Assembly: GCA_050246755.1 (NCBI GenBank)
Contig: JBFWVL010000002.1
Location: 192,001 to 256,000 of the forward strand
Direction of reading: 5' to 3'
Origin: Bacteriovoracia bacterium
Lineage (GTDB): Bacteria > Bdellovibrionota > UBA1018 > CAIPTA01
DNA: 64,000 nucleotides
Positions 37,182-53,745 of the stretch are shown one piece after another (positions within the stretch are counted from its first letter, which is position 1; each line of letters starts with the position of its first letter). Below the pieces are notes generated by a model. The model made no database searches. It worked only from the letters and a program-made list of their open reading frames with translations, and was not told the DNA's origin. Both the position numbers and the translations under genes were made by a program.

Positions 37182-38300
37182 TCAGAGTTTTAGAAAGTTC
37201 AAAGCCTTCTTCGACCAGCTCGCGGCGAAGGACTCTGCACTAGCTCGCTGGATCTCGGCCAAGACGCCTTTTCCCAGCGCTTTACCGGCCTTAGCGGGCA
37301 GATAGCTCTGCAATACCTTTGCCCCGCCCGGGAAATTTTCCTGCAAACCGGCGAGGGCCCGCGCATAGCCATAGAGGGGGATCTTAGGAGACGAAAGCTT
37401 GGCGAAGCCCTCGAGTAGCGCCTCGGCCACTTCGGCCTTTTCCTCTCCACTAAGCAAGGAGTGCCGGGCGATGGCGGCTCCCCAGGCATCGAAAAAAGGC
37501 CCTACCGGCAATAAAAAATCCCGGCTGCGGCGCAGGCATTTGGGCTTTCGCAGGGGATAGTGGCGGTGGTTCTCGGGTGCCATAAAGGCTTTGTTTAAGG
37601 TTCCGGCCTCGACTAGGGTTTCCTGGGCCGGGCCAAAATCGGCGTGCTTCTCGTGGCCCAGCTTATACACGCGAAGGCGGAGAGGATCATTCGGGGGAAG
37701 CTCCCATTGGTCGATCACGCGATCCAAATCCCCGAGGTTATGCGCGATCAGGGTGCAGCACTTGAGGAGCTCCACGCCCTTACGCTGTTTTTTCAAGGAA
37801 TCGAAAATCTTGGCCTCGAGCAGCAGTTCCTCCACGATTTTTTCCACGAAGGCGGCGGCGATTTCAGGATTGCGGTTTCGGTGCGAGGCGTAGGCGCCAG
37901 CCGCCACGCTGAACCACTCTCCCTGGTGCCCGGAAACGTAGGCTCCTTCCGCCTCGGCGAGGCGAGTGGTTACCGGGCGAAAATCCCAGTTCCGCGATTC
38001 GAGCGTGAGCGCCGCCATTTTCTCCGTGATCTCGAGCGGCAGGCTCTCGTCCCAGAGGTGTTTGCGGATTTGGTTATCCACGTCGGTGGGAACGAAGGTG
38101 GCCACGGTGCCGTAGTGGGCGCAGAGGCAGAGGCGGAAGTACTCGAGGTGGTTGAGCGGGGCAGAGGTATCCGTGCGCACCGCGCTCAGGGTTTGCACAT
38201 AGGGCAAAGACCCAAACTCAGGGGTAAAAAGGAAGGCGGCGGTATTTTCCACGAGAGAGAGGAGAGCGGCGGGCTCGATCCCGCGCCGGGGAGCGTTCAC
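37182..38300 (-). CDS. Hypothetical protein
   Basis: GTG start just after the ferredoxin stop with AAGGA SD; motifs HYGTVATFVPTDVD, SGHQGEWF, IAHNLGDLDR, ENHRH. Confidence 0.75.
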   Translation of the reverse strand: MNAPRRGIEPAALLSLVENTAAFLFTPEFGSLPYVQTLSAVRTDTSAPLNHLEYFRLCLCAHYGTVATFVPTDVDNQIRKHLWDESLPLEITEKMAALTLESRNWDFRPVTTRLAEAEGAYVSGHQGEWFSVAAGAYASHRNRNPEIAAAFVEKIVEELLLEAKIFDSLKKQRKGVELLKCCTLIAHNLGDLDRVIDQWELPPNDPLRLRVYKLGHEKHADFGPAQETLVEAGTLNKAFMAPENHRHYPLRKPKCLRRSRDFLLPVGPFFDAWGAAIARHSLLSGEEKAEVAEALLEGFAKLSSPKIPLYGYARALAGLQENFPGGAKVLQSYLPAKAGKALGKGVLAEIQRASAESFAASWSKKALNFLKL

Positions 38301-38302
38301 GG

Positions 38303-38602
38303 TTATTCCTTCCGAATGGCTTTTTCCACCGCATCCACGAGTGTGTCCACGTCGTCTTTTTTGAGGTCCAGGAACCATTCACCTTTAGGATAGAGCACCG
38401 CCGCGATTCCGCGCTCGCACTGGTCCAAACAGCCTGCGCTATTGATCCTCACGCTGCCCTTGGGAAATCCCTTCGCTTTGCAAGCGTCCTTCACGCGTTC
38501 CCGTAGCTTTTCGGCTCCCTTGGGGCAGCAGCTTTCGCGTTTGCCATTGGGGCCCCGATCGTTGGTGCAAATGAACAGGTGGGCGGTGAATTTGGGTTCC
38601 AT
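38303..38602 (-). CDS. Thioredoxin-like [2Fe-2S] ferredoxin
   Basis: HLFICTN.R...CC, RINSAGCLDQC, VLYP.G.W. Confidence 0.9.
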   Translation of the reverse strand: MEPKFTAHLFICTNDRGPNGKRESCCPKGAEKLRERVKDACKAKGFPKGSVRINSAGCLDQCERGIAAVLYPKGEWFLDLKKDDVDTLVDAVEKAIRKE

Positions 38603-38717
38603 TAGGCGGAGACTAGCATGGCTCCCGGCTCCTCGTGAGGGGAGGAAGAAAAAAGAGGTGGTTTTTCGGGGCACAAATGCCCATAATTTTTAAAGCCACA
38701 CGGGCGCGGGGGTTTTC

Positions 38718-40160
38718 ATGAATAAATACCTTTCGGTTTTCTCCAATAAAAGAATGCTGACCACTTTGCTGCTGGGATTTTCTGGCGGTTTGCCGCTGGC
38801 CCTCGTGGGATCCACCCTCCAGGCCTGGCTCGCGCGTTCCAATGTGGACATCGTGTTGATCGGGCAGTTCGCGCTGATCCAATACCCCTATGCCCTTAAA
38901 TTCCTGTGGGCTCCGTTTATGGACAATAAACCTCTGCCCTTCCTCGGGCTGCGCCGGGGTTGGCTCGTGGTTAGCCAGATCGGGCTCTTCGCCGCCACCT
39001 GGGGCTTGGGCTCGATCGGAAATCCTTCCAATACCATCGCGCTCTTCTCGCTGCTGGCCTTCCTGCTCGCGTTTTTCAGCGCCAGCCAGGACATCGTGAT
39101 CGACGCCTACCGCACCGAAATCATCGAGGACGAAAAAGAGCTTGGCGCCGGTGCCTCCACTTATATCACCGGCTACCGCATCGCCACGCTGGTATCGGGA
39201 GGGGTGGCGCTCGGCCTCGTGGACCAGATCGGCTGGAAGCACGTCTATTTCCTCATGGCCTCCATCAACTTGGTGGGGCTCGTTACCGTGCTGCTTTCCA
39301 AGGAACCTAAAGTAACGCGTGAAGTGAAGACGCAAACCGGCTCCTTCACGAAACCTTTTATCGAGTTCTTCCAGCGCAGCGGCGCGATGGAAATTTTGAT
39401 TTTTGTGATGGTCTACAAATTGTCTACGCTCATGGCCACCGCACTCACCACGAAGTTTCTCGTGGATCTGGGCTATTCCAATCTCATGATCGGCACCGTG
39501 AATAAGGGTGCCGGTCTCATCGCCACGATCGCGGGCACGCTCGCCGGCGGAGCGCTGATGGCCAAGCTTGGGCTCAAGCGCTCCCTTTGGGTATTCGGGA
39601 TCCTGCAGGCCATGGTGGGGCTCACGTTCTGCGCGCTTTCCTATCTGGCCAGCCATGGCGGGGAAATCCAGAATCTCGGCCTGGTGATGGTAGTGAGTAT
39701 CGATAATTTCTTCATGGGAATGGGCACCGCCGCGCTCACCGGATTCCTCATGCACGTTTGCAGCAAACGCTATACCGCCACGCACTACGCCTTGCTCACG
39801 AGCGTGATGGCGGTGGGGCGGGTGGTGCTGATCGCGCACGCGGGCACCCTCGTGGCGTGGATGGGGTATAACTGGTTCTTCATCGCCACGGTGCCGCTGG
39901 CGATTCCGGGGCTCTTACTCCTGCGCCGCTATGATTTCTGGGAGAAGAGCTCCGGCCAGCTCGTGACCACGAAGGTGCCCAAATTCGAATTAGGGCTGAT
40001 GGTGGTGATGATGGCCTCGCTGCTCCTGCTTTCCTCGGATCCCGTTTGGAGATTTTTGGATAAAAAGGCCCTGGGCACCGAAGTGGCGCTGCTCGGCGCC
40101 TTCGGGGTGCTCGCGGTGGTGGCGCTCGGCTTGCTCAAGCCCCAGGCGCAGCGCACCTAA
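38718..40160 (+). CDS. ampG: AmpG muropeptide MFS permease
   Basis: LGFSGGLP, KFLWAP, SASQDIVIDAY, ATHYALLTS. Confidence 0.93.
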   Translation: MNKYLSVFSNKRMLTTLLLGFSGGLPLALVGSTLQAWLARSNVDIVLIGQFALIQYPYALKFLWAPFMDNKPLPFLGLRRGWLVVSQIGLFAATWGLGSIGNPSNTIALFSLLAFLLAFFSASQDIVIDAYRTEIIEDEKELGAGASTYITGYRIATLVSGGVALGLVDQIGWKHVYFLMASINLVGLVTVLLSKEPKVTREVKTQTGSFTKPFIEFFQRSGAMEILIFVMVYKLSTLMATALTTKFLVDLGYSNLMIGTVNKGAGLIATIAGTLAGGALMAKLGLKRSLWVFGILQAMVGLTFCALSYLASHGGEIQNLGLVMVVSIDNFFMGMGTAALTGFLMHVCSKRYTATHYALLTSVMAVGRVVLIAHAGTLVAWMGYNWFFIATVPLAIPGLLLLRRYDFWEKSSGQLVTTKVPKFELGLMVVMMASLLLLSSDPVWRFLDKKALGTEVALLGAFGVLAVVALGLLKPQAQRT

Positions 40161-40555
40161 GCCTGGACCATCACCAGCGCTTCACCGGTGGCGGCGGGTT
40201 TGCCGTCGGCCTTGAGGGCTTTGGTCTCAATCGTGAGAAAACCTTTTTCTTCGCGGATATTTAGTACCGTGAGCTCGATGATGATTTCTTCGTCCACGAA
40301 AACCGGCGCGGTAAACTTCAAGCTTTGGGTTAAGTAAACGGCGCCGGGGCCCGGCAATTCGGTGGCTAGTGCGCGCGAGATGAGGGCGCCCGTGATCATT
40401 CCGTGGGCAATGCGCCGCCCGAAGCGGGTGGTCTTGGCGAACGCGTCGTCGAGGTGCACGGGATTTTTGTCGCCGCTGAGCTCGGCGAAGTCCCGGATCA
40501 TTTTATCGGTAACGGTTACGCGCACGGAGGCTTTGTCGCCCACTTTGAATTTCAT
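40157..40555 (-). CDS. MaoC/PhaJ-type (R)-specific dehydratase
   Basis: FAELSGD.NPVH.D, IAHG, LPGPG. Confidence 0.92.
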   Translation of the reverse strand: MKFKVGDKASVRVTVTDKMIRDFAELSGDKNPVHLDDAFAKTTRFGRRIAHGMITGALISRALATELPGPGAVYLTQSLKFTAPVFVDEEIIIELTVLNIREEKGFLTIETKALKADGKPAATGEALVMVQA

Positions 40556-40622
40556 TTCATTCTCCCGAAATTTATTTTCTTACCGGTTTGCCCGCGCCCC
40601 GGCAAAATGGCAAGCTGATCTT

Positions 40623-41987
40623 ATGGGGTTGATGCGCTTTTCGTTGATGGGGTTACTATTCCTTTTTTCCGTCCAGCCGGCGGGGGCCGCCGAGTGGAAA
40701 TTTTCGCTGAACGGCGAAACCGAGGTCACCGGCCTGCATTGGCAGGAAAAAGTTTTGCCCGATAATCGGCAGAACCGCTATCTGCTGAACCAGAAGCTGC
40801 CGATGACGTTGCGCTACGGGCGCGCGTGGCGGTTCCGCCTACAGCCGATTGCGCTCTTCGATCCTAATAATATCTCCAAGAGCGAGCGCCTATTCTGGGA
40901 TATCCAGGAGGGCTACCTCCAGTACCAGGCGCTACCCTGGACGGTGCAAGTGGGGAATAATATTTTCACCTGGGGCGATACCGACGTGTTCAATCCGCTC
41001 GACGTGGTGAACCAGCGCCGCTATTTCGATCCCTTCCAGTCCGAAAAGCTCGGCGCCCCCGCTCTGATGGTGAAGCGGGAGTTCGAAACATTTTTCGTGG
41101 AAGCGATTTATATCCCGAAGCAGAGAAAAACGTTATTGCCCGGCGAGCAGAGCCGCTGGCTCCCGCGCGACGTGTATAAAAGCCGCAGTTACCGCGTGCC
41201 GATCGTAGCCGGTGGAGTCACGAAAACCTACAATACCACCCTGAATTTACCGTCGGTGGTGAACTACCATTATATGAAGCCCGAGGAGCGCGACAATGCC
41301 CTCGACAATAGTTTCGGCGGCCGTTTCAAATTCCGTTTTCCCGGTTTCGACTGGACGCTCGCGGCGTTCCAGGGAACCGCTCCCACACCCGCGGTAAACG
41401 TAAAGGAAGTAGGGCTCCTTGGTAATATCGCGATTCTGTCGTCCACCGAAATCTCGGCCACTATGCTGGAGCCCGACCTCACGGTGCAGGCCACGTACTA
41501 TCAGTCGCGCATGGGCGGCACCAGTTTCACGCTCGTGGCCGGAGATTTTTTGGTGAAGGGCGCCTCGGCGTATACTTCTCCCGTAAAGCACGCGGGCGAT
41601 TTACCGGCGAAAACGCTCGAGAACGCCCTTGGCCTAGAGCGCACCTTCAGCGTGGGCAAGGGATCGCTTACCGCCTTGGCGCAGGGAACCTACGTGAAGC
41701 GCGGAGACCGCGTGGACACGAACTCCGTTTCGCTAGCCCGTATGTTCGATCGGGCCGGCATGGGGGCCCTTCGCTGGTCGGCGAGCGAGAAGCTCACGGT
41801 ACTGGCTTCTTACCTGCGCGATATCCGTTACAAAGGCAACGTCGTGCATGCCGACGCTTCCTATAAGATCGCCGATGGCTGGCGCGCCAAAGTGGGGGCG
41901 GATTTTCTTTCCGGCCCCACCGAGACGCCGATCGGTACCTACGGGCGTAACGACCGGATTACTTTGTCTTTGAATTCTCAGTGGTGA
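40623..41987 (+). CDS. Outer-membrane beta-barrel protein (DUF1302-like)
   Basis: Signal peptide; G...F.WG..D.FNP.DVVN motif; C-terminal G.YG.NDRI.L...W. Confidence 0.65.
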   Translation: MGLMRFSLMGLLFLFSVQPAGAAEWKFSLNGETEVTGLHWQEKVLPDNRQNRYLLNQKLPMTLRYGRAWRFRLQPIALFDPNNISKSERLFWDIQEGYLQYQALPWTVQVGNNIFTWGDTDVFNPLDVVNQRRYFDPFQSEKLGAPALMVKREFETFFVEAIYIPKQRKTLLPGEQSRWLPRDVYKSRSYRVPIVAGGVTKTYNTTLNLPSVVNYHYMKPEERDNALDNSFGGRFKFRFPGFDWTLAAFQGTAPTPAVNVKEVGLLGNIAILSSTEISATMLEPDLTVQATYYQSRMGGTSFTLVAGDFLVKGASAYTSPVKHAGDLPAKTLENALGLERTFSVGKGSLTALAQGTYVKRGDRVDTNSVSLARMFDRAGMGALRWSASEKLTVLASYLRDIRYKGNVVHADASYKIADGWRAKVGADFLSGPTETPIGTYGRNDRITLSLNSQW

Positions 41988-43512
41988 ACTGAAGCCCGAG
42001 GTTTCCGCCGCTCTGGAGCTGCCAGTGTTCGGGCACCAGCTTGAGCGCTTTGCCCACCACGAAGGTGGGGAAGGCGAGGGTGAGGCCCTCGGCACTCAGC
42101 GATTCCTTCGCCGCGTCGGCCATAGTCTGGGCGGCGATTCTCTTCGTTGGGTTATACTGAGCCACGTATTGCTTGGCCCAGCTATAGCTCATGGGAAGCT
42201 CGTCGGCGGTAACGAGGAAATCCACTTTCCCGCCCTTTTGCAGCTTCATCTTCGATTGGCCCTGGAGCAGGGTTCTGAACTCCACGTAGGGAGTATAGGT
42301 TCCTTTTACCGGGGCGAACATGCGGATCGCGAGCGGGAGCGTGAGATCACCCGAGATCGTGTCGGTGTCGGTCGCTTTTTCGTTGTCGAAAGAGGGCGGG
42401 CCGTTGGGCACGAAGTTAAAGGCGAAGGTAGTATTGGTCGGGAACTTCATGAGGTCCGGCCAAGCCCAGAATTGTTTCCAGCGCGACTGCATGAATTCCT
42501 GGAACGCAGGAATCTCGTAGGAGCGCAGTGAATATTCCAGCTTGCCCGCAAAGTATTCTCCCATCATCAGCGCGCGGATCGTAGCGAACGGCATCATCAA
42601 TTGAGGAATGGCAGTGCTTTGGGTTGCCGCTTGCGAGGTCTTGGCCGCGGTGCCAACACCGAGCTTAAATTCCTGCACGATGTTTTGGTTGGGGGCTACG
42701 TACGGATACACGAAACGCAGCTGGCCCTCGAGCATCAGGCCGCCGCCGCTCTCGCGGGCGTTTTTGGGCTCATAGTAAAGCTTGAGGTAATCTTTTTGCG
42801 TGGGCAATTCGCGCTCGCTGAGCAGGAGAATGCTGGCGTCTTTGCTCCACTGCACGAACTTAGTTTCCAGCTCACCGCGAACTTGCGCATCGAAATTCTG
42901 GAAACTCGCGAGGGCATTGAGCGCGTACTCACGCACGTTCACGTCTAGGCCTTCGGTGCCGCTGCAGGAAATGCTTTCCACTTCCCAAGCGCCTTGCTGC
43001 CAGTCTGCGTTGAAGGAGGGCATGGAGAGCTTTACTTGTCCGTCGAGCACTTCGGCGCGGATGGTGGCGGCCACGGAGCTAAGGCCCGGCTTGAGGCGCA
43101 AGGAAACGTTGTGGCATTCGGCGTCGAGTTTCACGCGGTAGCGAACGCCATCGATCACGCGGTCGACGATTTGCGAGGCCGATATATTAGCTACCGTGAT
43201 GCGCGCGCCGAGCTGATTGCTGGCGAGGGTCCATTCCCGGGTATTGGCGTTAGTACGCTTGGGCACGGGGAAGGCGTAGTTCATCTCGGCGGTGATTCCG
43301 CTGATCTGAATGGGAAGCCCCGGATTGATCGTGAAGTTGGGAATCGCCACGCTCTGGGTGCCGCTGAGGCTCTGCCAGAAATCTTCGATCACTTTGTCGA
43401 AGAGGCTCTCGGTGAGCTGGAGTTGGAATTCACTTTTCACTTCCCAACGCGCTTGGGCGGCGAGGGGGAGAGCGGCGAGCAGTAACGGCAGCGTGTAAAA
43501 AAGTTTTCTCAT
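41959..43512 (-). CDS. Secreted beta-rich hypothetical protein (possibly a tubular lipid-binding fold)
   Basis: Signal peptide (AQA); helix followed by long beta strands. The fold is an inference only. Confidence 0.65.
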   Translation of the reverse strand: MRKLFYTLPLLLAALPLAAQARWEVKSEFQLQLTESLFDKVIEDFWQSLSGTQSVAIPNFTINPGLPIQISGITAEMNYAFPVPKRTNANTREWTLASNQLGARITVANISASQIVDRVIDGVRYRVKLDAECHNVSLRLKPGLSSVAATIRAEVLDGQVKLSMPSFNADWQQGAWEVESISCSGTEGLDVNVREYALNALASFQNFDAQVRGELETKFVQWSKDASILLLSERELPTQKDYLKLYYEPKNARESGGGLMLEGQLRFVYPYVAPNQNIVQEFKLGVGTAAKTSQAATQSTAIPQLMMPFATIRALMMGEYFAGKLEYSLRSYEIPAFQEFMQSRWKQFWAWPDLMKFPTNTTFAFNFVPNGPPSFDNEKATDTDTISGDLTLPLAIRMFAPVKGTYTPYVEFRTLLQGQSKMKLQKGGKVDFLVTADELPMSYSWAKQYVAQYNPTKRIAAQTMADAAKESLSAEGLTLAFPTFVVGKALKLVPEHWQLQSGGNLGLQFTTENSKTK

Positions 43513-43590
43513 GGGGCTATTTTCTCACTTCGATAGCTAAAGTTAGTAAGAACCTAAAGTGCCTACAGGAACGAACCGAGTAGTAGCTGA

Positions 43591-43629
43591 TTGACTCGCT
43601 CCATTATTAAATGTTAACATGGGTTAACA
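43591..43629 (+). promoter_or_regulatory. sigma70-like promoter overlapped by a palindromic operator
   Basis: TTGACT (43591) and TAACAT (43615); inverted repeat TGTTAAC-atgg-GTTAACA at 43612-43629. Confidence 0.55.
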
Positions 43630-43682
43630 ATATTGCAATGGGCGACGATATTAAATTTTAAGAAAACCCGAGAGCCCGACAC

Positions 43683-46600
43683 ATGAAAATTAGGCAAATT
43701 ACTGAAGTTACTAAGTTTGTTATGAAAAATGCCAAGCGTTTTTCGATTTTAGTGATTTTGGCTTTTTTGGGTTTGGGGGCCATATCCGCCTTATCACTCT
43801 CTAAGCTCAAGACCGAATACTCCATGCGTCAGTTCTTGCCGCCCCACCATAAACTGATGGAGACCGACGACGCCCTCAAGGCTCGTTTCCAGCTTCCCGA
43901 CCTCGAGCCCTTCTTCGCCCTCATTAGTATTCCTGAAAAAGAGACCGGCAACTGGTTCCAGCCCGAACGCATGGCCAAGCTCAAAGAAATTACCGAGGGC
44001 CTCAATAAGTATGAGGGCGTGAGCCGTGCCATCAGCTTAGCCACGATCGAGGGAGCCTCGTCGAGCCCGGAAGGAATCACCGTGGGGCGTCTGCTCGATC
44101 TCACGCCCGCGAAGGATTGGGAAAATCGCGTGCTTAAAGATCCTATCCTCAGTCCGCACCTGATCACCGCCGACGGCCGCACCGCCGTACTCGCCATGGT
44201 CAACCAAGTGGGCCTCACGCAGAAAGCCAGCACCGCAATTCAGGACGAAACCCGCGTGCGTATCCAGGCCGCCTTTCCTGGCTACCAGCTTCGCCTCGGG
44301 GGCATTCCCGTGGTGCAAACCGAAATGAGCCAAATTCTCGGCAAAGAACTAAAAAATTTCCTCGTGCTCTCGCTGCTCGCCAGCCTTTTCACCCTCATGC
44401 TTTTCTTCCGTTCTTTCTCGAGCGTGCTGATCCCGCTTATCCTATTGTTACTCGCGAACTTCATCAGCTTGGCTTGGATGGCGTGGACGGGCACCGCCTT
44501 CACCGTACTTTCGAGTACGCTGCCCGTGCTCGTGGCGCTCACGGTAGTTTCGATGAGCGCGCACACGATGCTGCGCTACGCTTCGGACTGGCAGCTCGCG
44601 CTCCGCTCCCAAGAGAACCCGAACCCGATCCGCGTGCTTTTCCATTCCTACGCCGGACTGCTATTGCCGAACTTCCTCACGGCCGTAACCACCTCCATCG
44701 GATTTTTCGCGATCGCCTTCGCTAATATTCCCCTTGTGCGCCAATACGGGATCACCGTGGGGATTTCCATTTTCGTTTGCTGGTTCACCGTGATCGGCGC
44801 CTTGCTCCCGCTGCTCGTTCTCTTTCCCGTGCCCCAGGTGCGCGACTGGACCGAAAAGCGCGCCAGCTGGGCCCTCTGGATTACCGCTCACAGCCGAAAA
44901 GTGGTTTTCGCCGTGGTGGCTCTCAGCGCAGTTTGCTTATTTTTCGGGCGTCAGCTCAACTGGTCGGCGCAGTTATTCGACGATCTTCCCAAGGGCCACG
45001 AGGCCCGCGCCACCACCGAGTTCGTGGATTCCCATCTTGGCGGCATGATTCCCCTCGATATCGTGGTGGAGCGCGATGAGGAAAATGCCTGGAACGATCC
45101 CTCGGCTCTCGCTAGATTCGATGAGCTCGCTAATGATTGGCGCAAGCATCCCGCCGTTGGCTCCGTGACCGGCCCGCAGGATTTCATTCGCGTGGCCGGT
45201 AAAGTGCAGGGGCGGGGCCTCGCTTCCACCCGTCAAGAGGCCGCTGAGTACGCGTTCCTCTACGGATTCGCCGCCGATAATCCTTATAAGCAATACGTAA
45301 CGTCGGACGGCCGCGCCGCCCGCATCAACTTGCGCTTGCATGATATCCCCGGCGATAAAATGGCCTTGGTGGTGCAGCAGCTCACCGAGCAAACCCAGGC
45401 GAAATTCCCCGGCTGGAAGGTAACGCCCGGCGCGATGGCCACCACCGTGCATGTGCTCAATAACGAACTTTGCCGCGAATTGATCTGGGGTTTCTGGCAA
45501 GCCTTGCTCTTAATCGCCGTCGTTCTTGCTTGTGTATTCCGCTCCGTGCGCTGGACGATCGCGGCGGTACTGCCGAACTTGGTTCCCGCGTTCTTACTTC
45601 TTGGCGCGCTGTACCTAGGCGCTACGCCGATTAAGCCTGGCATCGCCCTGATCTTTTCGATCGCCCTCGGTATATCCTTCGACAATACCGTGTATCTCAT
45701 GGGGCGTTTACGCCTTCTGCGGGACCGCTCCGCCACGAAAAAAATCATGGTCGCCAAAGCCTGGTACCAAGAAGGCAATCTCTGTCTCTTTTCCTCGCTC
45801 GCGTTGTCTTCCGGTTTTCTTGTATTCTTGGCCTCGTTCTTCTCGCTCAATCAGCAGTTCGGTATGTATATGCTCATCGCCATCCTGGGATCCCTCGTCG
45901 GAGATCTCGTGCTCATGCCCGCAATGCTTGCGGCCTTCCCCCGGATGCTGGAGAATAGAGCCAAACCCGAACTTCAAAAGGAGAATGATATGTCTGAGAG
46001 AGCGATCGCCGCCGGTATTGCACTGGCATTTTTCACCAGCAGTTTCGCCTACGCTGCGGTGGATTTGAAAGACGCGAAGTCCATTCTGAAAAACGTAGAG
46101 AAAAATATGTCGGCTACCGACGAAGTGGCCAACGTGAAGATGACCATCACCGAAGCCGACGGCACGAAAAAAGATCGTGGCCTGCAGATCAGCCGCAAGG
46201 GCAAAGACGCAGACCAAAAAGTAATGGTGCGCATGAACGCTCCCGCCGATCTAAAGGGCACCGCGCTGCTCTCCGTTTCGAAGGGCAAATCCAGTGACCA
46301 GTGGCTCTATTTGCCCTCGAGCAAGCAGACGCGCCGGATCCAGAGCGGTAACCGCAGCGGCGGTTTCATGGACTCCGAGATGAGCTACGAAGACATGGGC
46401 ACCAACGCCGACGCGAAATTCGAGAGTAAAGTTCTACCCGAAGAGACGATCGCCGGCCGCAAGTACTCCGTGATCGAGAGTATTCCGAAGGGCGAGAGCT
46501 CTTACGGCAAAGTGGTGACCTGGGTAGACCAGGGAACGTACCTCGTGGGCAAGATGCAATACTTCGACAAGTCGATGAAGCCGCTCAAGGTGACGAACTT

Positions 46601-46766
46601 CACGGGTTACAAGCAATACGACAAGGGAGTATGGCGCGCGCAAAAAGTGCAGGTGCAGAATCTGCAAAATAAACGCGGCACCACCCTCGAGCTTTCCGAC
46701 CTGAAACTTAACAAAGGCCTCGACGACGCCGAATTCACCGAGAGCGCCCTCACCGAAGGCGATTGA
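43683..46766 (+). CDS. MMPL/RND family transporter fused to a C-terminal LolA-like (outer-membrane lipoprotein-sorting) domain
   Basis: Two RND repeats (TTSIGF, PN..P, GI..DNT); C-terminal P.D.KGT..L, QWLYLPS...RRI, F..SEMSYED. Confidence 0.88.
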   Translation: MKIRQITEVTKFVMKNAKRFSILVILAFLGLGAISALSLSKLKTEYSMRQFLPPHHKLMETDDALKARFQLPDLEPFFALISIPEKETGNWFQPERMAKLKEITEGLNKYEGVSRAISLATIEGASSSPEGITVGRLLDLTPAKDWENRVLKDPILSPHLITADGRTAVLAMVNQVGLTQKASTAIQDETRVRIQAAFPGYQLRLGGIPVVQTEMSQILGKELKNFLVLSLLASLFTLMLFFRSFSSVLIPLILLLLANFISLAWMAWTGTAFTVLSSTLPVLVALTVVSMSAHTMLRYASDWQLALRSQENPNPIRVLFHSYAGLLLPNFLTAVTTSIGFFAIAFANIPLVRQYGITVGISIFVCWFTVIGALLPLLVLFPVPQVRDWTEKRASWALWITAHSRKVVFAVVALSAVCLFFGRQLNWSAQLFDDLPKGHEARATTEFVDSHLGGMIPLDIVVERDEENAWNDPSALARFDELANDWRKHPAVGSVTGPQDFIRVAGKVQGRGLASTRQEAAEYAFLYGFAADNPYKQYVTSDGRAARINLRLHDIPGDKMALVVQQLTEQTQAKFPGWKVTPGAMATTVHVLNNELCRELIWGFWQALLLIAVVLACVFRSVRWTIAAVLPNLVPAFLLLGALYLGATPIKPGIALIFSIALGISFDNTVYLMGRLRLLRDRSATKKIMVAKAWYQEGNLCLFSSLALSSGFLVFLASFFSLNQQFGMYMLIAILGSLVGDLVLMPAMLAAFPRMLENRAKPELQKENDMSERAIAAGIALAFFTSSFAYAAVDLKDAKSILKNVEKNMSATDEVANVKMTITEADGTKKDRGLQISRKGKDADQKVMVRMNAPADLKGTALLSVSKGKSSDQWLYLPSSKQTRRIQSGNRSGGFMDSEMSYEDMGTNADAKFESKVLPEETIAGRKYSVIESIPKGESSYGKVVTWVDQGTYLVGKMQYFDKSMKPLKVTNFTGYKQYDKGVWRAQKVQVQNLQNKRGTTLELSDLKLNKGLDDAEFTESALTEGD

Positions 46767-46785
46767 TCTCTAGTTTGTGTTCTTA

Positions 46786-46820
46786 AGAGCCGGTCACCTA
46801 TAAGGGTGGTCGGCTTTTTT
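46786..46820 (+). terminator. Intrinsic terminator of the MMPL gene
   Basis: AGAGCCGGTCACC...GGTGGTCGGC followed by a T-run. Confidence 0.75.
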
Positions 46821-46861
46821 GTGCCTGTTTTGCACGCGCATGCTGCCGCCCCGTCCGCTGG

Positions 46862-47040
46862 AATACCTCTGCCCCGGAGAGTGCCTTCGCTTTTGCGAAT
46901 ACCTCTGCCCCGCGCCAGCAACTCTGCTCCTTAAAATACCTCTGCCCGGTGTGGGGGCAATCACCATCGTGTCAGATTTTCGTACGCGCCCACGTCTGCA
47001 TACCGAACACCGCTCTCCTAAAATACCTCTGCCCCAGAGG
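46862..47040 (+). repeat. Four direct copies of AATACCTCTGCCC(C) upstream of the HUH/Y1 gene
   Basis: Core 13-mer at 46863, 46899, 46936 (12/13) and 47023; unique spacers of 22 and 23 nt, then a longer gap. Confidence 0.9.
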
Positions 47041-47058
47041 CTTTACCCCACGCGGAAA

Positions 47059-47074
47059 TGGCATGCTTCCCGCT
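47059..47074 (+). promoter_or_regulatory. Candidate sigma54 promoter of the HUH/Y1 gene
   Basis: TGGCATGCTTCCCGCT, GG-N10-GC; predicted +1 lies about 2 nt before ATG 47087. Confidence 0.35.
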
Positions 47075-47086
47075 CGGCCCGCCCGC

Positions 47087-47605
47087 ATGAAATTCCAAGT
47101 ACGTAAATGGAGTCCGCTCGAACACGGAGGTATCGTACGCAAGGGCCAGCGGAAACGCCGCCGCTATATGGATGTGAGTCGAACCCTGCACTTGGTGATG
47201 CGTTCTACTAAGGCCAGGGGCCACCGCAGTTTTATTAACCCGCGCAATAAGGGCGTGATCCATCTGCTGCTCATCGATACGGCCAATCGCTACGAGATAA
47301 AAATCTATAACTACGTGAACGTTGGCAACCATCTGCACCTTCACGTGCGCGGATGGAAACGCAAAAATCTCCAGGCATTCTTGAAAGTATTCCCGCAAAG
47401 AGTGATGTTCCACGTAACGGGCGCACGCAAGGGTCGCCCGCGCGGCAAGTTTTTCGATGAGATCGTCTATTCGCGCGTGGTGAACTGGGGCGGCGATTTC
47501 AAGCGCGTGAAAGAATATTTTTGGAAGAACACGCTCGAGGCGCTGGGATTCAGTCACGCCACGATCGTGAAGTGGCGCAGGGCCGCGCGGATAGTGCCGC
47601 CCTAA
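47087..47605 (+). CDS. HUH/Y1 tyrosine transposase-like protein (IS200/RAYT superfamily)
   Basis: LHLVMRS strand; HUH motif NVGNHLHLHV; YSRVV; catalytic-like EYFWKN; no tnpB adjacent. Confidence 0.85.
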   Translation: MKFQVRKWSPLEHGGIVRKGQRKRRRYMDVSRTLHLVMRSTKARGHRSFINPRNKGVIHLLLIDTANRYEIKIYNYVNVGNHLHLHVRGWKRKNLQAFLKVFPQRVMFHVTGARKGRPRGKFFDEIVYSRVVNWGGDFKRVKEYFWKNTLEALGFSHATIVKWRRAARIVPP

Positions 47606-48408
47606 CGGACCAGCGGAAAGAAATCGAAGCTATATACGTAGGCCGTTTCTTCGGGAGACTTAGCGATCACGTCTTGGTTCTTTTTTAGATTTTCCAGCAG
47701 GGAAACTTTCACGCGCTCGGCATCTTCCCGTGAAAGGCTCACGCAGGCCGAGTAGTGCATGTCGTTGGTGCCCGCCGAGTCCATCGACTGAATTGAAAAT
47801 AGCCGCCAGTTGCTGTGCAGGTTCTTGATCAGCGGATCGGTGGCGGGTAGGTGCACGTGGCTCGGGCCGGCGGAGTAGTGGGTGCCCTTAAGCTTGAGGA
47901 TCCCGCAACCCACGAGGAAATCCAATTTCTCGTCGAGTTCGGCCGGATGCACGCGCAGGGCCTGGCTGAGCGCGAGTTTGGTCTGAAAAGACGGGATCGA
48001 GCAGAGTACGTGAATTGCGGCGTAGAGGTGGCTCGAGTGGAATCGCGCGGTGTCGCTCGCGGAAATACCGGTAGAGGGCCGCACTACTTTTGAGGGCGTA
48101 AGTTTCTGCGCGCGTTTAGCGGCGAGTAGAGTTTGAAATCGCTGGCGGGCTTTTGAGGAGCGGGCGCGGTCGCGGCAGACTAGGAGCGCGAAGTACTCGG
48201 CCTCGTCCTCGTCGTGACGAAGAAAATCATTCATGAGCTCGGCCTGTTCGGTGCTAAGGTCGGCTTTTCCCGAAAGAATTTGCGATAAATAGGTAGTGTG
48301 AACGGCCAAAGCGCGGGCCGCATCGGCGCGCATGCCCGAGCGATGACCCTGCTCGTCAAATCGTAACTTAAGGTAATCGCGGTAGTTTTGGGATTCGTAG
48401 ATTTTCAT
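47602..48408 (-). CDS. TIGR02147/DUF4423 family HTH protein
   Basis: IYE..NYRDYLK; N-terminal HTH (TYLSQILSGK..LS); LH.NWR; C-terminal YVYSFDFFPL. Confidence 0.85.
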   Translation of the reverse strand: MKIYESQNYRDYLKLRFDEQGHRSGMRADAARALAVHTTYLSQILSGKADLSTEQAELMNDFLRHDEDEAEYFALLVCRDRARSSKARQRFQTLLAAKRAQKLTPSKVVRPSTGISASDTARFHSSHLYAAIHVLCSIPSFQTKLALSQALRVHPAELDEKLDFLVGCGILKLKGTHYSAGPSHVHLPATDPLIKNLHSNWRLFSIQSMDSAGTNDMHYSACVSLSREDAERVKVSLLENLKKNQDVIAKSPEETAYVYSFDFFPLVR

Positions 48409-48507
48409 ACCTGTGCCCTCGAGGTGTAGAGTTATTCTCTTATTTCAACCTGATGATTTAGTAAAATAATCTTTTCGCGCTTGTGGCCTGCACGTATAAA
48501 CAGTCTC

Positions 48508-49545
48508 ATGATGAAACTCATTTTGGTTTTGGGAATTTTCGGCGCGCTCCACGCACAGGCCGGCGTGATCAACGGCGGCGGGGGCAAAGGTATTCTCTGC
48601 GTGAACCCCGACGGCAGCCGCACGGTGGAGAGCCTCGATCGCTACGAAGCGAGGATCGTTTGGCGCTACTCGGTGCCCGAGAGCAAGGATTTCGACGCCG
48701 AGTTTTTGCGGATGATGTCGAGGGCCCACTATGCTTTCAATGGGAACGCCCACCAAGCGCCCGGTCCTTATTCGGCCAAAGAGCACGAAGAATTTTTGTT
48801 GCTGCTCAAGGTATTCCAGGCCCAAATGAATTTTCTTCCAGTAGGCACTCACCTCAAACCCACCGATGACGCCGGGGAAGTGGTGATTCCGCCCGCAAAC
48901 TGCGCCATCACGCAGGTGATCCATTACCTCGATGAAACCGAACGTACCGGGCAGATCCTGGTAGACAAAGAATACTGGGACCTTCTCTCCCCGCAGGATC
49001 AAGTCGGTTTTTTCATGCATGAAGTGGTTTACAAAGATTTTCGCACTTCCGGCGAAACTTCCTCTCTGCGCACCCGTAAACTAGTGGGCCGTTTGCTTTC
49101 CAGCGAGGTGTATCCAAATCCTTATTCTCCACTCTGGGGAGCGCCCAAGATGCTGCATTGCCTGGGCAAGATGGACGATTATGGATGGGGAACTTCCAGC
49201 GGGCTGGATTTTTACGTAGTTCCTGCTGTGGATAAGCCGGGCCGCAATGCGGCTTTGCTCGTGTTCACTACCATCGGCGACGACGGCATGATGGCCGCCA
49301 CCACGGCGCTCAGTCCTTTCGAGTACGAAAGCTTTACTGGTGATCCGCAGTACGCCAGTTACGGGTCGGCCAGCTTGTCGGTGAATTCATTTTATGGTCC
49401 GCGCAGCCTGGTGCTCAGGATGGGGGGAGAAGGAGCTGGCTCTCCGCCGCCGCAGCCTTCCCTGCGGAAGATGTTTATGCGCTTCGATCGTAAAGGACAA
49501 ACCCAGGAAACGGAGTTTTCCTGCCAACCCGAGGAGAGACAATGA
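48508..49545 (+). CDS. Secreted hypothetical protein with a GGGG motif and HExxY
   Basis: Signal peptide then AGVINGGGG; W..L...DQ..FFMHEVVY; divergent from the TIGR02147-like gene. Confidence 0.8.
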   Translation: MMKLILVLGIFGALHAQAGVINGGGGKGILCVNPDGSRTVESLDRYEARIVWRYSVPESKDFDAEFLRMMSRAHYAFNGNAHQAPGPYSAKEHEEFLLLLKVFQAQMNFLPVGTHLKPTDDAGEVVIPPANCAITQVIHYLDETERTGQILVDKEYWDLLSPQDQVGFFMHEVVYKDFRTSGETSSLRTRKLVGRLLSSEVYPNPYSPLWGAPKMLHCLGKMDDYGWGTSSGLDFYVVPAVDKPGRNAALLVFTTIGDDGMMAATTALSPFEYESFTGDPQYASYGSASLSVNSFYGPRSLVLRMGGEGAGSPPPQPSLRKMFMRFDRKGQTQETEFSCQPEERQ

Positions 49546-49925
49546 AGTACTTGCTCATCGCCATGCTGTTCGCCAATACCGTTTTCGCCGCCGATAATTG
49601 CGGTCCGCAGGAAGGAAAATTCGGCTGGGAAAAAGCCGTGAAAGTAGGGGACGTAGTCACCTTCTTCAACCCGCGTCTCAATCTCGACGGGGTGAATCTC
49701 ATCCCGATCGCTTTCGACGACGGCGTGACCGAGTCCTTTTCGAACGGCGTTTGCAAAGCCCTCGGCAAGAAGACGGGTACCGTAGGCCAGATTACTCGAG
49801 CGTACGAGCTGGAAACCACACTCGCGGTTTTCATCGATGCGGCGGGCCGCGTGGCGTATATGCATGAAATTGGAAGAAATTCTGGATCCTATACTGGAAT
49901 CGTAAACTCGATTTCCTGCCGCTAG
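49542..49925 (+). CDS. Small secreted hypothetical protein
   Basis: Signal peptide (VFA); ATGA overlap with the upstream gene; SD GGAG. Confidence 0.75.
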   Translation: MKYLLIAMLFANTVFAADNCGPQEGKFGWEKAVKVGDVVTFFNPRLNLDGVNLIPIAFDDGVTESFSNGVCKALGKKTGTVGQITRAYELETTLAVFIDAAGRVAYMHEIGRNSGSYTGIVNSISCR

Positions 49926-49957
49926 TCATTACATAAAATTTAAGGAGAACGATAACC

Positions 49958-50437
49958 ATGAAATTTCATGCAACGGCACTGCTTTGCCTAGTCCTAACTG
50001 CCTGTGGAGCGGAGGAGCCTAGAGACCAAGAAATAAGCACCGATACTGCCACTATCACCGAGAACCTCGTTGCGGCACCGATGCCCGGCGATGGACGGCT
50101 AAACCAGACAGAGTTTAAGTCGCTCCATTGCGTGGCGCTTGTGAGTTCCTCGAATAACCCGGCGCGGGTTTTGGCGAGCGTGAAGTGCGATGGGTTCGGC
50201 GTCGTAAGCGGGGACTACGTGCTCGAATGCCAAGACAACAGGCTCTGCGTTCAGCGGCAATCCGTGCACGGAGGGCAGACAGAAGCGGTTTTTTCCGAAA
50301 ATTTCATGCAGATGATCCTGACGATTTCCGACTCGAATGGAAAGAAAGTTTATAGTGATAACTTCGTTTGCGAGAAGGGTTGTGCGCTGGAATTTCAGCC
50401 GCCTTCGTTCGAGAAAGGCACTCAGCCACGGCCCTAA
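49958..50437 (+). CDS. Cys-rich lipoprotein
   Basis: AAGGAG SD; lipobox LTAC. Confidence 0.78.
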   Translation: MKFHATALLCLVLTACGAEEPRDQEISTDTATITENLVAAPMPGDGRLNQTEFKSLHCVALVSSSNNPARVLASVKCDGFGVVSGDYVLECQDNRLCVQRQSVHGGQTEAVFSENFMQMILTISDSNGKKVYSDNFVCEKGCALEFQPPSFEKGTQPRP

Positions 50438-51675
50438 AGATTGCGAAATGCCTCGGGCGTGCCCATGCCCCTGATTTCGTCGCCGGCCTTGGTGCTCCCA
50501 TGGGTATGGAATTCCCGCCGCCGTTTTCGGTAAGAAACACTCACGCGCTCAAACAGCGAAATACCGTGCATTTCGGCCGGGGCAGGCGAAACCGCCGGCC
50601 CGCGCAGATCGCTCAGCGGGTTCATCGCGCCCGGCGAGATTTTTTCAATCGAAGCTAGGTGGCGCGCCCCTACGTCTACGGGCGCGGAAGCACCGAAGGC
50701 CTGCGCGTAGCCTTCCGAAATACCTCTGCCCCGAGGCGAGGGTGCTAGGGGAGTGGCCTCCCTAGTAGGCGCCAAAACCTGTGCCCCGGCTAGTAGGGCA
50801 GGTCCGCCGCTAGCGTTGAACCTAGTCGACTGGCCCGCACTCGTCACGGATACCTCTGCCCCAGAGGCGGGCGTCACGCGGCCCTCCAGCGCTTTCGCCA
50901 CCACGGGGCCGGGGTCCGCGAGCGTTTCTTCGACGGCGTTGCGTTTGGTTCGATCCAGTTTTCCCACGAACGGTGATTCGTTCACGATCGCCGCAAACGG
51001 CTCGCCAGCAAAAGCACGCCGCATGATCTCGCCGTTCTCGTAGCCAAGGTAGACGGATCCGTCGGGGAAGCGCTCCGATAATTCTTTCCACCCGAGCGCG
51101 TTCACCGCCGTGGACCTAGAAACCCCCGAACGGCTTTCTTCCGGCGCCAATGTGGGCACCATCACCGGGGCGCCGCTCGCCATTTCGGTGAGCCCAGTCA
51201 TGGGAGAAACCAGCGCGTCGGTACGCGTTTTCGTAGAGTAGCAGCCCGTCATCGACGAAGCGTATTGGCTGCTGAACGCCATCCAGTCGGTCATCGTGAA
51301 GCCATCGGCGCCCCAGGAAGTGCATTCGCCCGCGCCGTCGCGGGTAAGGCAATTGGCGGCGTTCCGGAGGGCTTGGCTTAGTCCCACGCATTCCGGGCTT
51401 TTGGGAGAAGCCGCGCAAACGGAATCCGTGCGCCCGCCTACGTTCGTGCCCACGCAGCCTCCCATTACGTTGGAGCCCATCACGAAGGCATTGGCTTGGG
51501 TGGACTCGGAATCCACATCTTCTCTATAGAGCTGGTTATTGTATTTCGTTACCTCGTACTCGTCGGAGCGTTTGGAATCGCCGGCGCCGGTCGTTTTACC
51601 GTTCTCGCCAACTAGATCGTTCGCGGCGAAGCCAAGGCCGGGGCAGAGGTATAAAATTAAGAAGAGGCGAATCAT
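50434..51675 (-). CDS. Secreted hypothetical protein, SIFExV...Y family
   Basis: Signal peptide; Cys-rich N-domain; EIMRRAFAGEPF; C-terminal SLFERVSVSY; contains three exact copies of the 13-mer. Confidence 0.8.
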   Translation of the reverse strand: MIRLFLILYLCPGLGFAANDLVGENGKTTGAGDSKRSDEYEVTKYNNQLYREDVDSESTQANAFVMGSNVMGGCVGTNVGGRTDSVCAASPKSPECVGLSQALRNAANCLTRDGAGECTSWGADGFTMTDWMAFSSQYASSMTGCYSTKTRTDALVSPMTGLTEMASGAPVMVPTLAPEESRSGVSRSTAVNALGWKELSERFPDGSVYLGYENGEIMRRAFAGEPFAAIVNESPFVGKLDRTKRNAVEETLADPGPVVAKALEGRVTPASGAEVSVTSAGQSTRFNASGGPALLAGAQVLAPTREATPLAPSPRGRGISEGYAQAFGASAPVDVGARHLASIEKISPGAMNPLSDLRGPAVSPAPAEMHGISLFERVSVSYRKRRREFHTHGSTKAGDEIRGMGTPEAFRNL

Positions 51676-52015
51676 AGTTCCGTGCCCCCGCGATTCACCA
51701 GCTCGCGCACATCTTTGGGCTCGGATTTTTTTGGCAGGCGCTTGATATAGTCTTCCATGCCCCGAAGGTTCGGCACCTGCCGCTGGTAGACGGTGCTCAC
51801 CCGGTCAAAGAGCGTGAGGTCGAGGCCGAGGGAATAGGGATTGTGCTTGAGCGCGCGCACGAAGTTTCCGTTGCTTGCGGGCCTGGGCGATACCTCTGCC
51901 CCGGAAGAGGTGGCCGGTTCGCGATTAGCGGTGCTGCCAATGATGATCGCGCCGTAGCCGCTATCGGGTGCGCCCCAGCGCCGGGTACGCTTGCTAGCCG
52001 AAATACCTCTGCCCC
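50720..52015. repeat. Intragenic copies of ATACCTCTGCCCC
   Basis: Exact copies at 50720, 50850, 51890 and 52003 (+) and 51640 (-); a 2-mismatch copy at 50775; a further exact copy at 38158 (-). Confidence 0.9.
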
Positions 52016-52625
52016 CGAGGTGGGTGGTCTCGGCCAGCGCGTCGGCGGGGGTGTCCACCACGGGGTAGGGAGTTTTCGCGGCGAGCTCCATGGTGTCCTG
52101 CTCGTGGGCGGGAATCTGCGTCCACATCGGCGAGGAGCTCAGTACGGACTCAAAACTTTCGCCCTCGAGGGTACGGCGCAGGATGCTTCCTTCGCGTAGT
52201 CCGAACGAGCTCGCGCCTTCTTCGAGGGAGGCCAGGAGGGCGCGGAAATTGGGATCGGCGAGCGCTTCCTGGGCACCGGAAGAATCGTTGTTGCCATACT
52301 GGTTGCGCACGCACTGGTGAAATACCGCGAGGTAACCCGCCGCAACCGATACCCACTGCGACTGCGTATTTTGGCGATACGCGTAGGCTAGGCAGGCCTC
52401 GCCGGCCCGCGCGCGGCACTGGTCTTTGCGGAGAGCATTGCGGAGGGCGAGCTGCATGCCCACGCAGGCATCGGCTTCGTGGTCGCTGGCGCAGTCGCCG
52501 TCGAAGCGGCCGCCGATCGCGGTTTCGATGCAGGAGAGCGTGGGTTTGGCGCTCGCGCCGGAGCGCAGAGGTTTTGCCTCCGCCGCGGTAGTAGCCAGGA
52601 GCAGGATGAAAACGAAGCTGTTCAT
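51672..52625 (-). CDS. Secreted hypothetical protein, SIFExV...Y family
   Basis: Signal peptide; Cys-rich N-domain; SILRRTLEGESF; TLFDRVSTVY. Confidence 0.8.
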   Translation of the reverse strand: MNSFVFILLLATTAAEAKPLRSGASAKPTLSCIETAIGGRFDGDCASDHEADACVGMQLALRNALRKDQCRARAGEACLAYAYRQNTQSQWVSVAAGYLAVFHQCVRNQYGNNDSSGAQEALADPNFRALLASLEEGASSFGLREGSILRRTLEGESFESVLSSSPMWTQIPAHEQDTMELAAKTPYPVVDTPADALAETTHLGGRGISASKRTRRWGAPDSGYGAIIIGSTANREPATSSGAEVSPRPASNGNFVRALKHNPYSLGLDLTLFDRVSTVYQRQVPNLRGMEDYIKRLPKKSEPKDVRELVNRGGTEL

Positions 52626-52626
52626 C

Positions 52627-53745
52627 CTAGAACTCGAGCGCGGCCGTGCCCTTTAGGTCGAAGATCGGCCGCGGAGCATCCGCTTGCTCGCGTTTCACGC
52701 CGAACATGAGAGGCGTCTTTTTATGGTACTGCGCGCGCACCATTTCGAAGATGCTCCGGCTGCTGATCCCGTTGCGATCGAGAGCCGCTTGCACTTCGGG
52801 GCTGATGCTGCCGTCTTTGGTGCCGCCACCCAGCGCCACGCCGCCGCCGGTATCTCCGGCGCCGGGCTTCCCGAAGAGCGAATCGAAGTCAGTGGTGGGG
52901 GCCGCGGAATTGATCTTCCGGTCACCACCGCTGGCGCTATACGCGCCTTCGCCAGCGAGGTCCTGGGCGTTGAGGCCGAGCCGGTCCATCACTTCTTCGC
53001 CGGTGAGGGGATTGGTATTGGCCATCGTGGAATCAATCATCTTCTGGAGCTCGGATTCCGATTTTCCGATTTTTGAAGAGCCGGCGAGAATTTCCGCGGG
53101 GCTTTTGCCCGCGTTCAAGCCATTGATGAGGTCGTCGCGGCTCAGGCCGGTTTTGTTTTCGAAGTCGTTGAGAATCTCCCCGATTTTTCCGCCATTGCGA
53201 GCGAGGGCCGGGTCGATTTTGATCGAGCTGCCGTTGCTCTCGTTCGACAAATTTCCGGGGCCAACGCTTTTTACGCTCTCGGCGGTGGGGCCGAGGTTAT
53301 TCGCGTATCCGCCGGCCTGCTGTCCGTTCTTACGCATATTGCTGGCAGCGGCGAGGGCGGCCATTCCGGCCATCATCAGCGCGATCCCCGCGGCCATGAG
53401 TGCCATACCGGGAGCCACGGTGGGAGGGCTCGCCATCATCGCGGCCCCGGCCGCCATCATTGCCATACCGGCGGCGATCGCCGCCAGGCCGAGGCTAGTG
53501 GAAGAGCTATCGCCTTGCTGATTGAGCTTGTTCGCGTCGTTCTGGTGCTGGAGCTGGGTCACGGTCGGCGCGGGAGGAGTGGGCATGGTGCTGGTGAATT
53601 TGTTGGCATCGGTTTTGGTGCTGGTGGAGCCGATATTCACGTCTCCCACGCTCACGCCGGCGGCCATGGCGTCTTCCACGCAAATATCGGCGGACGAAGT
53701 CCACAGAACCAAGGCGACAATCAATGTCCAAATGCCTAATTTCAT
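52627..53745 (-). CDS. Secreted protein with an Ala/Gly/Met hydrophobic hairpin, SIFExV...Y family
   Basis: Signal-like N-terminus; hairpin LGLAAIAAGMAMMAAGAAMMASPPTVAPGMALMAAGIALMMAGMAALAAA; SIFEMVRAQY. Confidence 0.82.
   Translation of the reverse strand: MKLGIWTLIVALVLWTSSADICVEDAMAAGVSVGDVNIGSTSTKTDANKFTSTMPTPPAPTVTQLQHQNDANKLNQQGDSSSTSLGLAAIAAGMAMMAAGAAMMASPPTVAPGMALMAAGIALMMAGMAALAAASNMRKNGQQAGGYANNLGPTAESVKSVGPGNLSNESNGSSIKIDPALARNGGKIGEILNDFENKTGLSRDDLINGLNAGKSPAEILAGSSKIGKSESELQKMIDSTMANTNPLTGEEVMDRLGLNAQDLAGEGAYSASGGDRKINSAAPTTDFDSLFGKPGAGDTGGGVALGGGTKDGSISPEVQAALDRNGISSRSIFEMVRAQYHKKTPLMFGVKREQADAPRPIFDLKGTAALEF

Follow-up and report, generated by a model that had tools for sequence, protein, structure and literature searches.

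A 13-nucleotide word clustered around a Y1 HUH transposase-like gene in a Bacteriovoracia genome is the local form of a family-wide cis element

A 64,000-nucleotide (nt) stretch of a Bacteriovoracia genome (hereafter the window: positions 192001-256000 of contig C2, JBFWVL010000002.1, in source assembly GCA_050246755.1, here G000, 3.55 Mb in 10 contigs) carries nine exact copies of a 13-mer, ATACCTCTGCCCC, all within 9 kb of one small gene for a Y1 HUH enzyme. We found that this 13-mer is the form taken in this lineage by a ~15-nt cis element, which belongs to a Y1 HUH clade that extends across Bdellovibrionota, and that it is a local, low-copy version of the known phenomenon of repetitive extragenic palindromic (REP) sequences and REP-associated tyrosine transposases (RAYTs), not a genome-wide signal. 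The reading we favor, with a probability of roughly 0.55, is that the Y1 enzyme has spread the motif locally as a REP-like repeat of low copy number, the 13-mer being the word that this enzyme would recognize.

Exact copies of the 13-mer in the window lie at 38158(-), 46863, 46899, 47023, 50720, 50850, 51640(-), 51890 and 52003, and three more positions match it with one mismatch (37313 and 46936 on the plus strand, 48581 on the minus strand). Two-mismatch matches number six and include 38928, 48407 and 50775, the three near-copies named in a preliminary description of this DNA, which did not mention the one-mismatch positions. The assertion made there that the word occurs far above chance was borne out when the nine exact copies were recounted: matches with at most two mismatches total 18 versus 1.25 expected, and 18 or more were reached in 0 of 100 shuffles. 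The entire assembly holds 11 exact copies versus ~0.1 expected. Nine of them cluster in a stretch of ~14 kb that reaches from 8.9 kb upstream of the Y1 gene to 4.4 kb downstream, and the other two lie at C1:327431 and C5:60998. Only one of 40 relatives searched contains the exact 13-mer, in a single copy. Seven of the nine local copies are on the plus strand, here the G-rich strand, and three of those seven belong to one array; this skew may fit single-strand transposition, which targets the lagging-strand template, at a count too small to carry weight. An Rfam scan of 36-54 kb found no match at any motif copy, returning only one tRNA and two sub-threshold matches.

The gene at the center of this cluster and the array of motif copies that precedes it are as follows.

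47063..47605, plus strand: Y1 HUH (RAYT/IS200-like) gene, 180 amino acids (aa), assigned by alignment, profile and predicted fold
46863..47035, plus strand: array of four direct motif copies, at 46863, 46899, 46936 (one mismatch) and 47023

Judged by alignment and a modeled fold, the product of 47063-47605 belongs to the RAYT/IS200 kind of Y1 HUH enzymes, in a diverged form that has its catalytic residues in place. It has 179 relatives in a protein collection (E<=0.001), the named ones from Bdellovibrionota, and many of these relatives carry PF01797 or the Joint Genome Institute (JGI) name 'REP element-mobilizing transposase RayT'. In an alignment of 24 sequences the HxH motif (H90, H92), Y152 and N156 are invariant, and a profile built from this alignment matches ISDra2 TnpA (2xo6, E=0.004). 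The AlphaFold (AF2) model of the protein (pLDDT 83.7, pTM 0.72) gave 24 matches at E<=0.001 in a Foldseek comparison with the PDB; those listed are Y1 transposases, with IS608, ISDra2 and IS200 TnpA first, and the best superposition is with the E. coli RAYT 4er8_A (TMq 0.54, root-mean-square deviation (rmsd) 3.1, 136 columns). RAYT genes usually occur once per genome and are inherited vertically; G000 has one copy of the gene plus a 31%-identical paralog, and genomes of the class have between 0 and 24 Y1 matches.

The array sits between the terminator of the upstream gene and the Y1 start codon, with 27 nt separating the end of the 47023 copy from the ATG. The link between motif and gene that the preliminary description had proposed extends beyond this genome, as a related motif stands upstream of Y1 homologs across the class, with AAATACCATTGCCCC as the class consensus of the ~15-nt element. 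We sampled 80 metagenome loci encoding proteins with 35-56% identity to the Y1 protein, 76 of them with at least 150 nt of upstream DNA, and found the same-strand motif upstream of the homolog in 55 of the 76. In these loci it is always on the gene's strand, with A/T-rich DNA before it, at a distance of 1 to 175 nt from the gene, and the locus-specific 12-mer is single-copy in 54 of the 55 motif-bearing loci and repeated in one. At 21 genome loci, the 260 nt upstream of the Y1 homolog contain the motif in its same-strand ..TGCCCC form (13 loci), as a TTGCCCT variant (3), inverted (2) or as an indel variant (1), leaving two loci with none. The 11-mer ACCATTGCCCC is present in 90 of 127 class genomes and lies directly upstream of a Y1 match, on the same strand, in at least 16 of the 150 places listed, as judged by eye.

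The closest genome homolog (59% identity, in G003) is preceded at the equivalent place by four direct copies of that genome's own variant, ATACCTTTGCCCC. In G004 the homolog has TTACCACTGCCCC twice on its upstream side and a third, inverted copy on its downstream side, and in G005 one copy stands on each side of the Y1 gene, inverted. A relaxed motif, WWACCWYTGCCCC, occurs 19, 7, 15, 10 and 6 times in G000, G002, G003, G004 and G005, respectively, versus 0-2 times for a reversed control. Multiplication of the motif is a trait of this genus, and only in G000 and a relative ~93% identical to it did we see copies spread densely into nearby genes. In another genome, G018, three Y1 copies form a repeated unit of ~690 nt (89-95% identical) whose left edge is the inverted motif and which has a promoter-like TTGACA...TATAAA pair inside. 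Because the motif lies upstream of Y1 homologs across loci and at the edge of the unit in G018, we conclude that it is a cis element of the Y1 family that also, in G018 at least, bounds a duplicated unit.

Further repeats were noted at some of these loci. The G018 units (L011, L045 and L046, at C23:19101-22550, C8:44589-48038 and C3:155855-159304) have the right end ...GAATACGGCCGGCGCCTGCGT. Just downstream of the Y1 homolog of L005 (G002:C17, ~1439-1490) lies a 13-nt tandem repeat, AACTGAGGTGCTG x4, and upstream of the same homolog is an inverted near-motif pair ~27 nt apart that looks REPIN-like. Another 13-nt tandem repeat, CCCCTCTCCATTT x3, is found just upstream of the motif copies in L006 (G004:C10, ~1307-1345). 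The second Y1 paralog of G000 (C1:164282-164746, minus strand, locus L002) has no recognizable family motif in the 260 nt upstream.

Within the window, six exact copies lie inside three intact genes, in four reading frames and both orientations. The host genes are these.

50434..51675, minus strand: gene A, secreted protein of unknown family, three exact copies and one near-copy
51672..52625, minus strand: gene B, paralog of A, secreted, two exact copies
37182..38300, minus strand: conserved hypothetical gene, carrying the 38158 and 37313 copies

The exact copies and near-copies in or at coding DNA are listed below with the residues they encode.

50720..50732, plus strand: exact; antisense in gene A, phase 1; (R)GRGI(S), in the linker
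50775..50787, plus strand: two mismatches; gene A linker, GAQVL
50850..50862, plus strand: exact; antisense in gene A, phase 0; GAEVS, in the linker
51640..51652, minus strand: exact; sense in gene A, phase 2; (L)YLCP(G), in the signal peptide
51890..51902, plus strand: exact; antisense in gene B, phase 0; GAEVS, in the linker
52003..52015, plus strand: exact; antisense in gene B, phase 1; (G)GRGI(S), in the linker
38158..38170, minus strand: exact; sense in gene 37182-38300, phase 1; DTSAP
37313..37325, plus strand: one mismatch (the CTTT variant, that of sister genome G003); antisense in gene 37182-38300; GAKVL
48581..48593, minus strand: one mismatch (CTTT variant); antisense in the secreted-protein gene 48508-49545; GGKGI, directly after the signal peptide
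48407..48419, plus strand: two mismatches; overlaps the start codon of a TIGR02147 gene and is followed by CGAGGTG, as is the 52003 copy

Translation confirmed the six exact intragenic copies and the peptides ascribed to them earlier (GAEVS twice, GRGIS twice, YLCPG and DTSAP), and their use of four frames and both orientations upholds the view that this is a feature of the DNA and not of the proteins. The host open reading frames (ORFs) are real genes, gene-like in codon-position GC, and all motif-host genes have orthologs on an independent, ~93%-identical contig (X3). Read from the sequence, the 13-mer contains no stop codon in any of the six frames. Four copies had been described as lying in linkers, and our alignments do place them in a stretch that is poorly conserved and varies in length, flanked by a conserved N-terminal part and by the conserved C-terminal ~50 residues.

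We used X3 to date the copies. This assembled 21.5-kb contig comes from an independent wastewater run, is collinear with 37156-53500, and differs from the window at 1149 letters over ~16.3 kb (~7%). Its ortholog of gene A (87-89% identity) keeps YLCPG, GAEVS and PRGRGI, and has GAEVS where the 50775 copy gives GAQVL; its ortholog of gene B (94%) keeps GGRGIS and GAEVSP, and the other hosts keep DTSAP, GAKVL and GKGIL. B orthologs at 48-54% identity, by contrast, lack both motif peptides. As the peptides are absent at 48-54% and kept in X3, the protein alignments indicate that the copies arose within this lineage before the X3 split, and that they then changed less than their surroundings. The motif was thus acquired in the lineage and has persisted in the sister lineage; going by the peptides, the 13-mers themselves are probably conserved in X3 at the DNA level as well. 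Local deposition and local overwriting of the motif had both been suggested, and here the comparison answers in part: at the protein level, absence at 48-54% and presence at 87-94% identity speak for acquisition, while insertion and replacement are not separable, the linkers being unalignable at 30-54%.

Identical columns between G000 and X3 make up 49 of 88 in the A linker and 71 of 82 in the B linker, and fully conserved 4-residue windows make up 13 of 80 and 30 of 60, respectively. All four motif-coded windows are conserved, at a joint chance of ~0.007. That motif residues stay fixed while the linkers diverge hints that the DNA word itself is under constraint. The earlier suggestion that the motif diversifies linkers is not supported, the motif-coded residues being the conserved part of fast-changing linkers in X3. 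X3 lacks 46839-46896, with 24 other bases instead of the first array copy, and has one array copy fewer; a further 12 bases are missing from it across five short gaps (50788-50807) that immediately follow the near-copy at 50775. In view of these gaps, sequence comparison marks the motif-bearing stretches as indel-prone parts of the region.

The flanks of the copies suggest that more than the 13-mer may have been copied. Five of the 55 pairs of exact copies share at least four extra 5' bases, versus 0.26 expected, a number reached in 0 of 2000 simulations; these pairs are 50720/52003 and 50850/38158 (five extra bases in common each), C1:327431/50720, C1:327431/52003 and 46899/C5:60998. The 47023 and 50850 copies have six further 3' bases in common, and flanks are otherwise mostly unrelated beyond the 13-mer. 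The shared flanks fit copying of a unit somewhat longer than 13 nt. A downstream GAGG or AGAGG, said earlier to follow four of the copies closely and to be able to pair back with CCTC(T), does occur within 0-3 nt at 47023, 50720, 50850, 51890 and 52003, but the pairing is weak (-2.8 to -6.1 kcal/mol), and no hairpin is predicted at the remaining copies.

We propose that the Y1 enzyme would recognize the ~15-nt element as its DNA word. The element has multiplied in this lineage, where four direct copies precede the gene and roughly eight others lie within ~10 kb. Presumably the enzyme works on single-stranded DNA and mostly beside its own gene, and it would bind, cut and copy the motif much as its solved relatives treat their own target words. 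Copies in coding DNA may persist because the word is stop-free in all six frames and because most of the sites, in variable linkers and in the signal peptide of secreted proteins, would be tolerant; one copy lies in an N-terminal stretch (aa 44-48) of a hypothetical protein, a site that may or may not be tolerant.

Several observations weigh against this proposal. At 54 of the 55 metagenome loci the motif stands alone, which is as compatible with a fixed cis element as with a mobile repeat. It lacks the GTAG or CGTC head of published REP superfamilies and is not a clear palindrome. Solved Y1 enzymes recognize hairpins; DNA hairpins of the form CCTC(T)...(A)GAGG are predicted for 4-5 of the 12 copies and near-copies folded, at the -2.8 to -6.1 kcal/mol given above, and a hairpin search beside the family motif found no consistent stem of at least six pairs in 51 metagenome loci. 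A Pfam scan of the Y1 protein returned nothing at E<=0.01, and with NCBIfam REP_Tyr_transpos it reaches 14.4 bits where the cut-off is 80 (E=0.026). The ~7% DNA divergence from X3 sets a minimum age for the copies, so that recent activity is not evident. In addition, the bases shared in the flanks may in part belong to a degenerate continuation of the recognized word, in which case the random expectation would be too low.

The most serious alternative, which we nonetheless consider unlikely, is a regulatory role: the motif would be a fixed promoter or operator of the Y1 gene, or an autoregulatory site bound by the Y1 protein or by a host factor. The extra copies would then be binding sites kept by selection, as decoys or for co-regulating the nearby secreted-protein genes, and would not have arisen by transposition. 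In its favor, 54 of 55 motif-bearing metagenome loci have the motif just once, and it always stands on the gene's strand, with A/T-rich DNA before it and the start codon close by. Its core, TTGCCC, also resembles a -35 box, followed in some loci by an extended -10-like word 16-17 nt on (by eye), and the motif-coded residues form conserved islands in diverged linkers, as would be the case for selected sites. However, -10-like hexamers occur at spacers of 16-18 in 5 of 51 distinct loci, which does not exceed their frequency at other spacers, and the motif-to-gene distance ranges from 1 to 175 nt. A sigma-70 scan of 46500-48700 returned 0 promoter-like sites. In G018 the motif is inverted and at the very edge of the unit, with a separate TTGACA...TATAAA pair inside. 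Sites deep in coding DNA, in both orientations and up to 9 kb off, would be unusual for an operator, and pairs of copies share flanking bases.

It is considerably less probable that the direct copies are programmed excision or fusion sites at which the Y1 enzyme varies the secreted proteins, giving B::A chimeras or truncations, with the word kept by selection, as the conserved islands would suggest. The Y1 enzymes of IS608 and ISDra2 cut and rejoin single strands at specific words, and joining 51890 to 50850 or 52003 to 50720 would be in-frame, GAEVS with GAEVS and GRGI with GRGI; joining both copies inside a single gene would shorten that gene. The copies are kept in the sister lineage, and the two lineages have different numbers of copies in the upstream array. 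Given the two frames used in A, though, a match by B arises by chance at ~2/9; A and B are intact and collinear in both lineages, and nothing else in our data favors rearrangement. Contigs of four public runs compared with 36500-53500 had no joint between motif copies among those listed, a result uninformative on rearrangement, as assembled contigs drop rare variants. If true, this reading would describe a transposase-derived system, built on a domesticated Y1 HUH enzyme, that varies secreted proteins in a Bdellovibrionota lineage.

Origin of the copies by chance, by A/B paralogy or by peptide selection is very improbable: A and B are paralogs that both have GAEVS and GRGIS, but the order of the two peptides is reversed between them, GAEVS and GRGIS are two frames of one DNA word, and other copies lie in unrelated genes and in non-coding DNA, with ~0.1 copy expected per genome. 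Signals of the Chi, HIP1 or DNA-uptake type run to hundreds of copies across a genome. A signal of this type, which the preliminary description had entertained, would explain a word that is short, exact, indifferent to frame and on the plus strand in seven of nine local copies, but is ruled out by the presence of only 11 copies in 3.55 Mb, nine of them near one gene in a single 14-kb stretch, and by the occurrence of the exact word in one of 40 relatives, once.

Two other genes of the neighborhood bear on the layout of the region.

47602..48408, minus strand: TIGR02147/DUF4423 helix-turn-helix gene, convergent with the Y1 gene and overlapping its 3' end
52627..53745, minus strand: gene C, first gene of a conserved C-B-A cluster, without a motif copy

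No TIGR02147 homolog was found next to the Y1 homologs at the other loci compared. Gene A has no Pfam or NCBIfam match; its orthologs share 29-35% identity in family genomes and 87% on the X3 contig. The tandem A-B pair has orthologs in other family genomes, where the C-B-A cluster is found at 29-37% identity, and homologs of gene C, which occurs in a 372-aa form in the protein collection, adjoin B homologs in L023, L032, L033 and L035. The cluster, of secreted proteins without a Pfam or NCBIfam family, recurs in these other genomes with no Y1 gene nearby. Common to A and B are a Cys-rich domain at the N terminus and a conserved tail at the C terminus (LFxRVSxxYxR ... DVRELxxRG).

We considered and rejected a mobile island: a scan of 23 ORFs found neither an integrase nor a recombinase family. 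The region does have tRNA-Thr(CGT) at 53908-53983 and tRNA-Ser(CGA) at 55901-55988, both on the plus strand and a short way past the C-B-A cluster. The gene immediately preceding the motif array, 43683-46766 (plus strand), encodes a 1027-aa MMPL/RND-type transporter fused to a C-terminal LolA-like domain (Pfam MMPL and LolA_like), with a clear terminator at ~46790-46822. A sub-threshold Rfam match to the twister-sister ribozyme at 40128-40222 on the minus strand (25.2 bits versus a gathering threshold of 34, E=0.11) is probably due to chance.

Compared with known systems, the Y1 gene shares with IS200/IS605 elements the Y1 HUH fold and catalytic residues, and the G018 unit, with the motif at one end, has the ~690-nt size of IS200. 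Several motif variants begin with TTAC or ATAC, a possible parallel to TTAC, the cleavage and target word of IS608. In contrast to those elements, the gene unit has no second copy in G000, only the 31%-identical paralog, and is therefore not an IS200/IS605 element in this genome. No subterminal hairpin was consistently seen beside the motif in 51 loci, the overlap of the Y1 gene with the convergent TIGR02147 gene leaves no room for a right end, and what has been multiplied is a short word, not an element. Shufflon sites are inverted repeats in coding DNA served by a dedicated tyrosine or serine recombinase, with variant arrangements in the population; here the 23 ORFs scanned include no recombinase family, and motif copies are mostly direct.

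The intragenic copies resemble intragenic REPs and Rickettsia palindromic elements (RPEs) in that units lie in frame in intact genes, add or replace a few residues, sometimes occur twice per ORF and are absent from distant orthologs. They differ in size, our units being 13-22 nt (~4-7 residues) and RPEs being longer, and in that the host genes here adjoin the Y1 gene and are not scattered. An excerpt of PMC3733652 describes in-frame units in intact genes of Opitutus terrae, Rickettsia and others, most inserts there being 20-30 residues long and present as dimers or grouped repeats.

The closest likeness is to a REPtron, with its single small Y1 HUH gene flanked by a short over-represented repeat. 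By TM-score and rmsd the fold is closest to the solved RAYT, E. coli TnpA-REP (PDB 4er8), and relatives in the genus have a flanking and inverted layout. Low copy number has precedent, the flanking 16-mers of RAYT Groups 1 and 4 numbering only 12-14 per replicon in an excerpt of PMC5581495. A literature search on Bdellovibrio plus RAYT found no paper on RAYTs of Bdellovibrionota by title. Unlike a REPtron, the system described here has no GTAG/CGTC head and no strong palindrome, its copies are mostly direct and not inverted doublets, nine of 11 are confined to 14 kb instead of being dispersed, and its Y1 protein does not reach the NCBIfam threshold for RAYTs. Across the class the ~15-nt word is conserved, whereas REPs are described as mostly species- or genus-specific. 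It offers a candidate recognition sequence for an uncharacterized RAYT-like clade.

Most known REP systems comprise hundreds of dispersed, palindromic copies, and to our knowledge how REP-type repeats spread is still unknown. The system described here consists of one Y1 gene, a non-palindromic ~15-nt word and one burst of about a dozen copies, is small enough to be read copy by copy, and may catch an early, still local stage of REP expansion.

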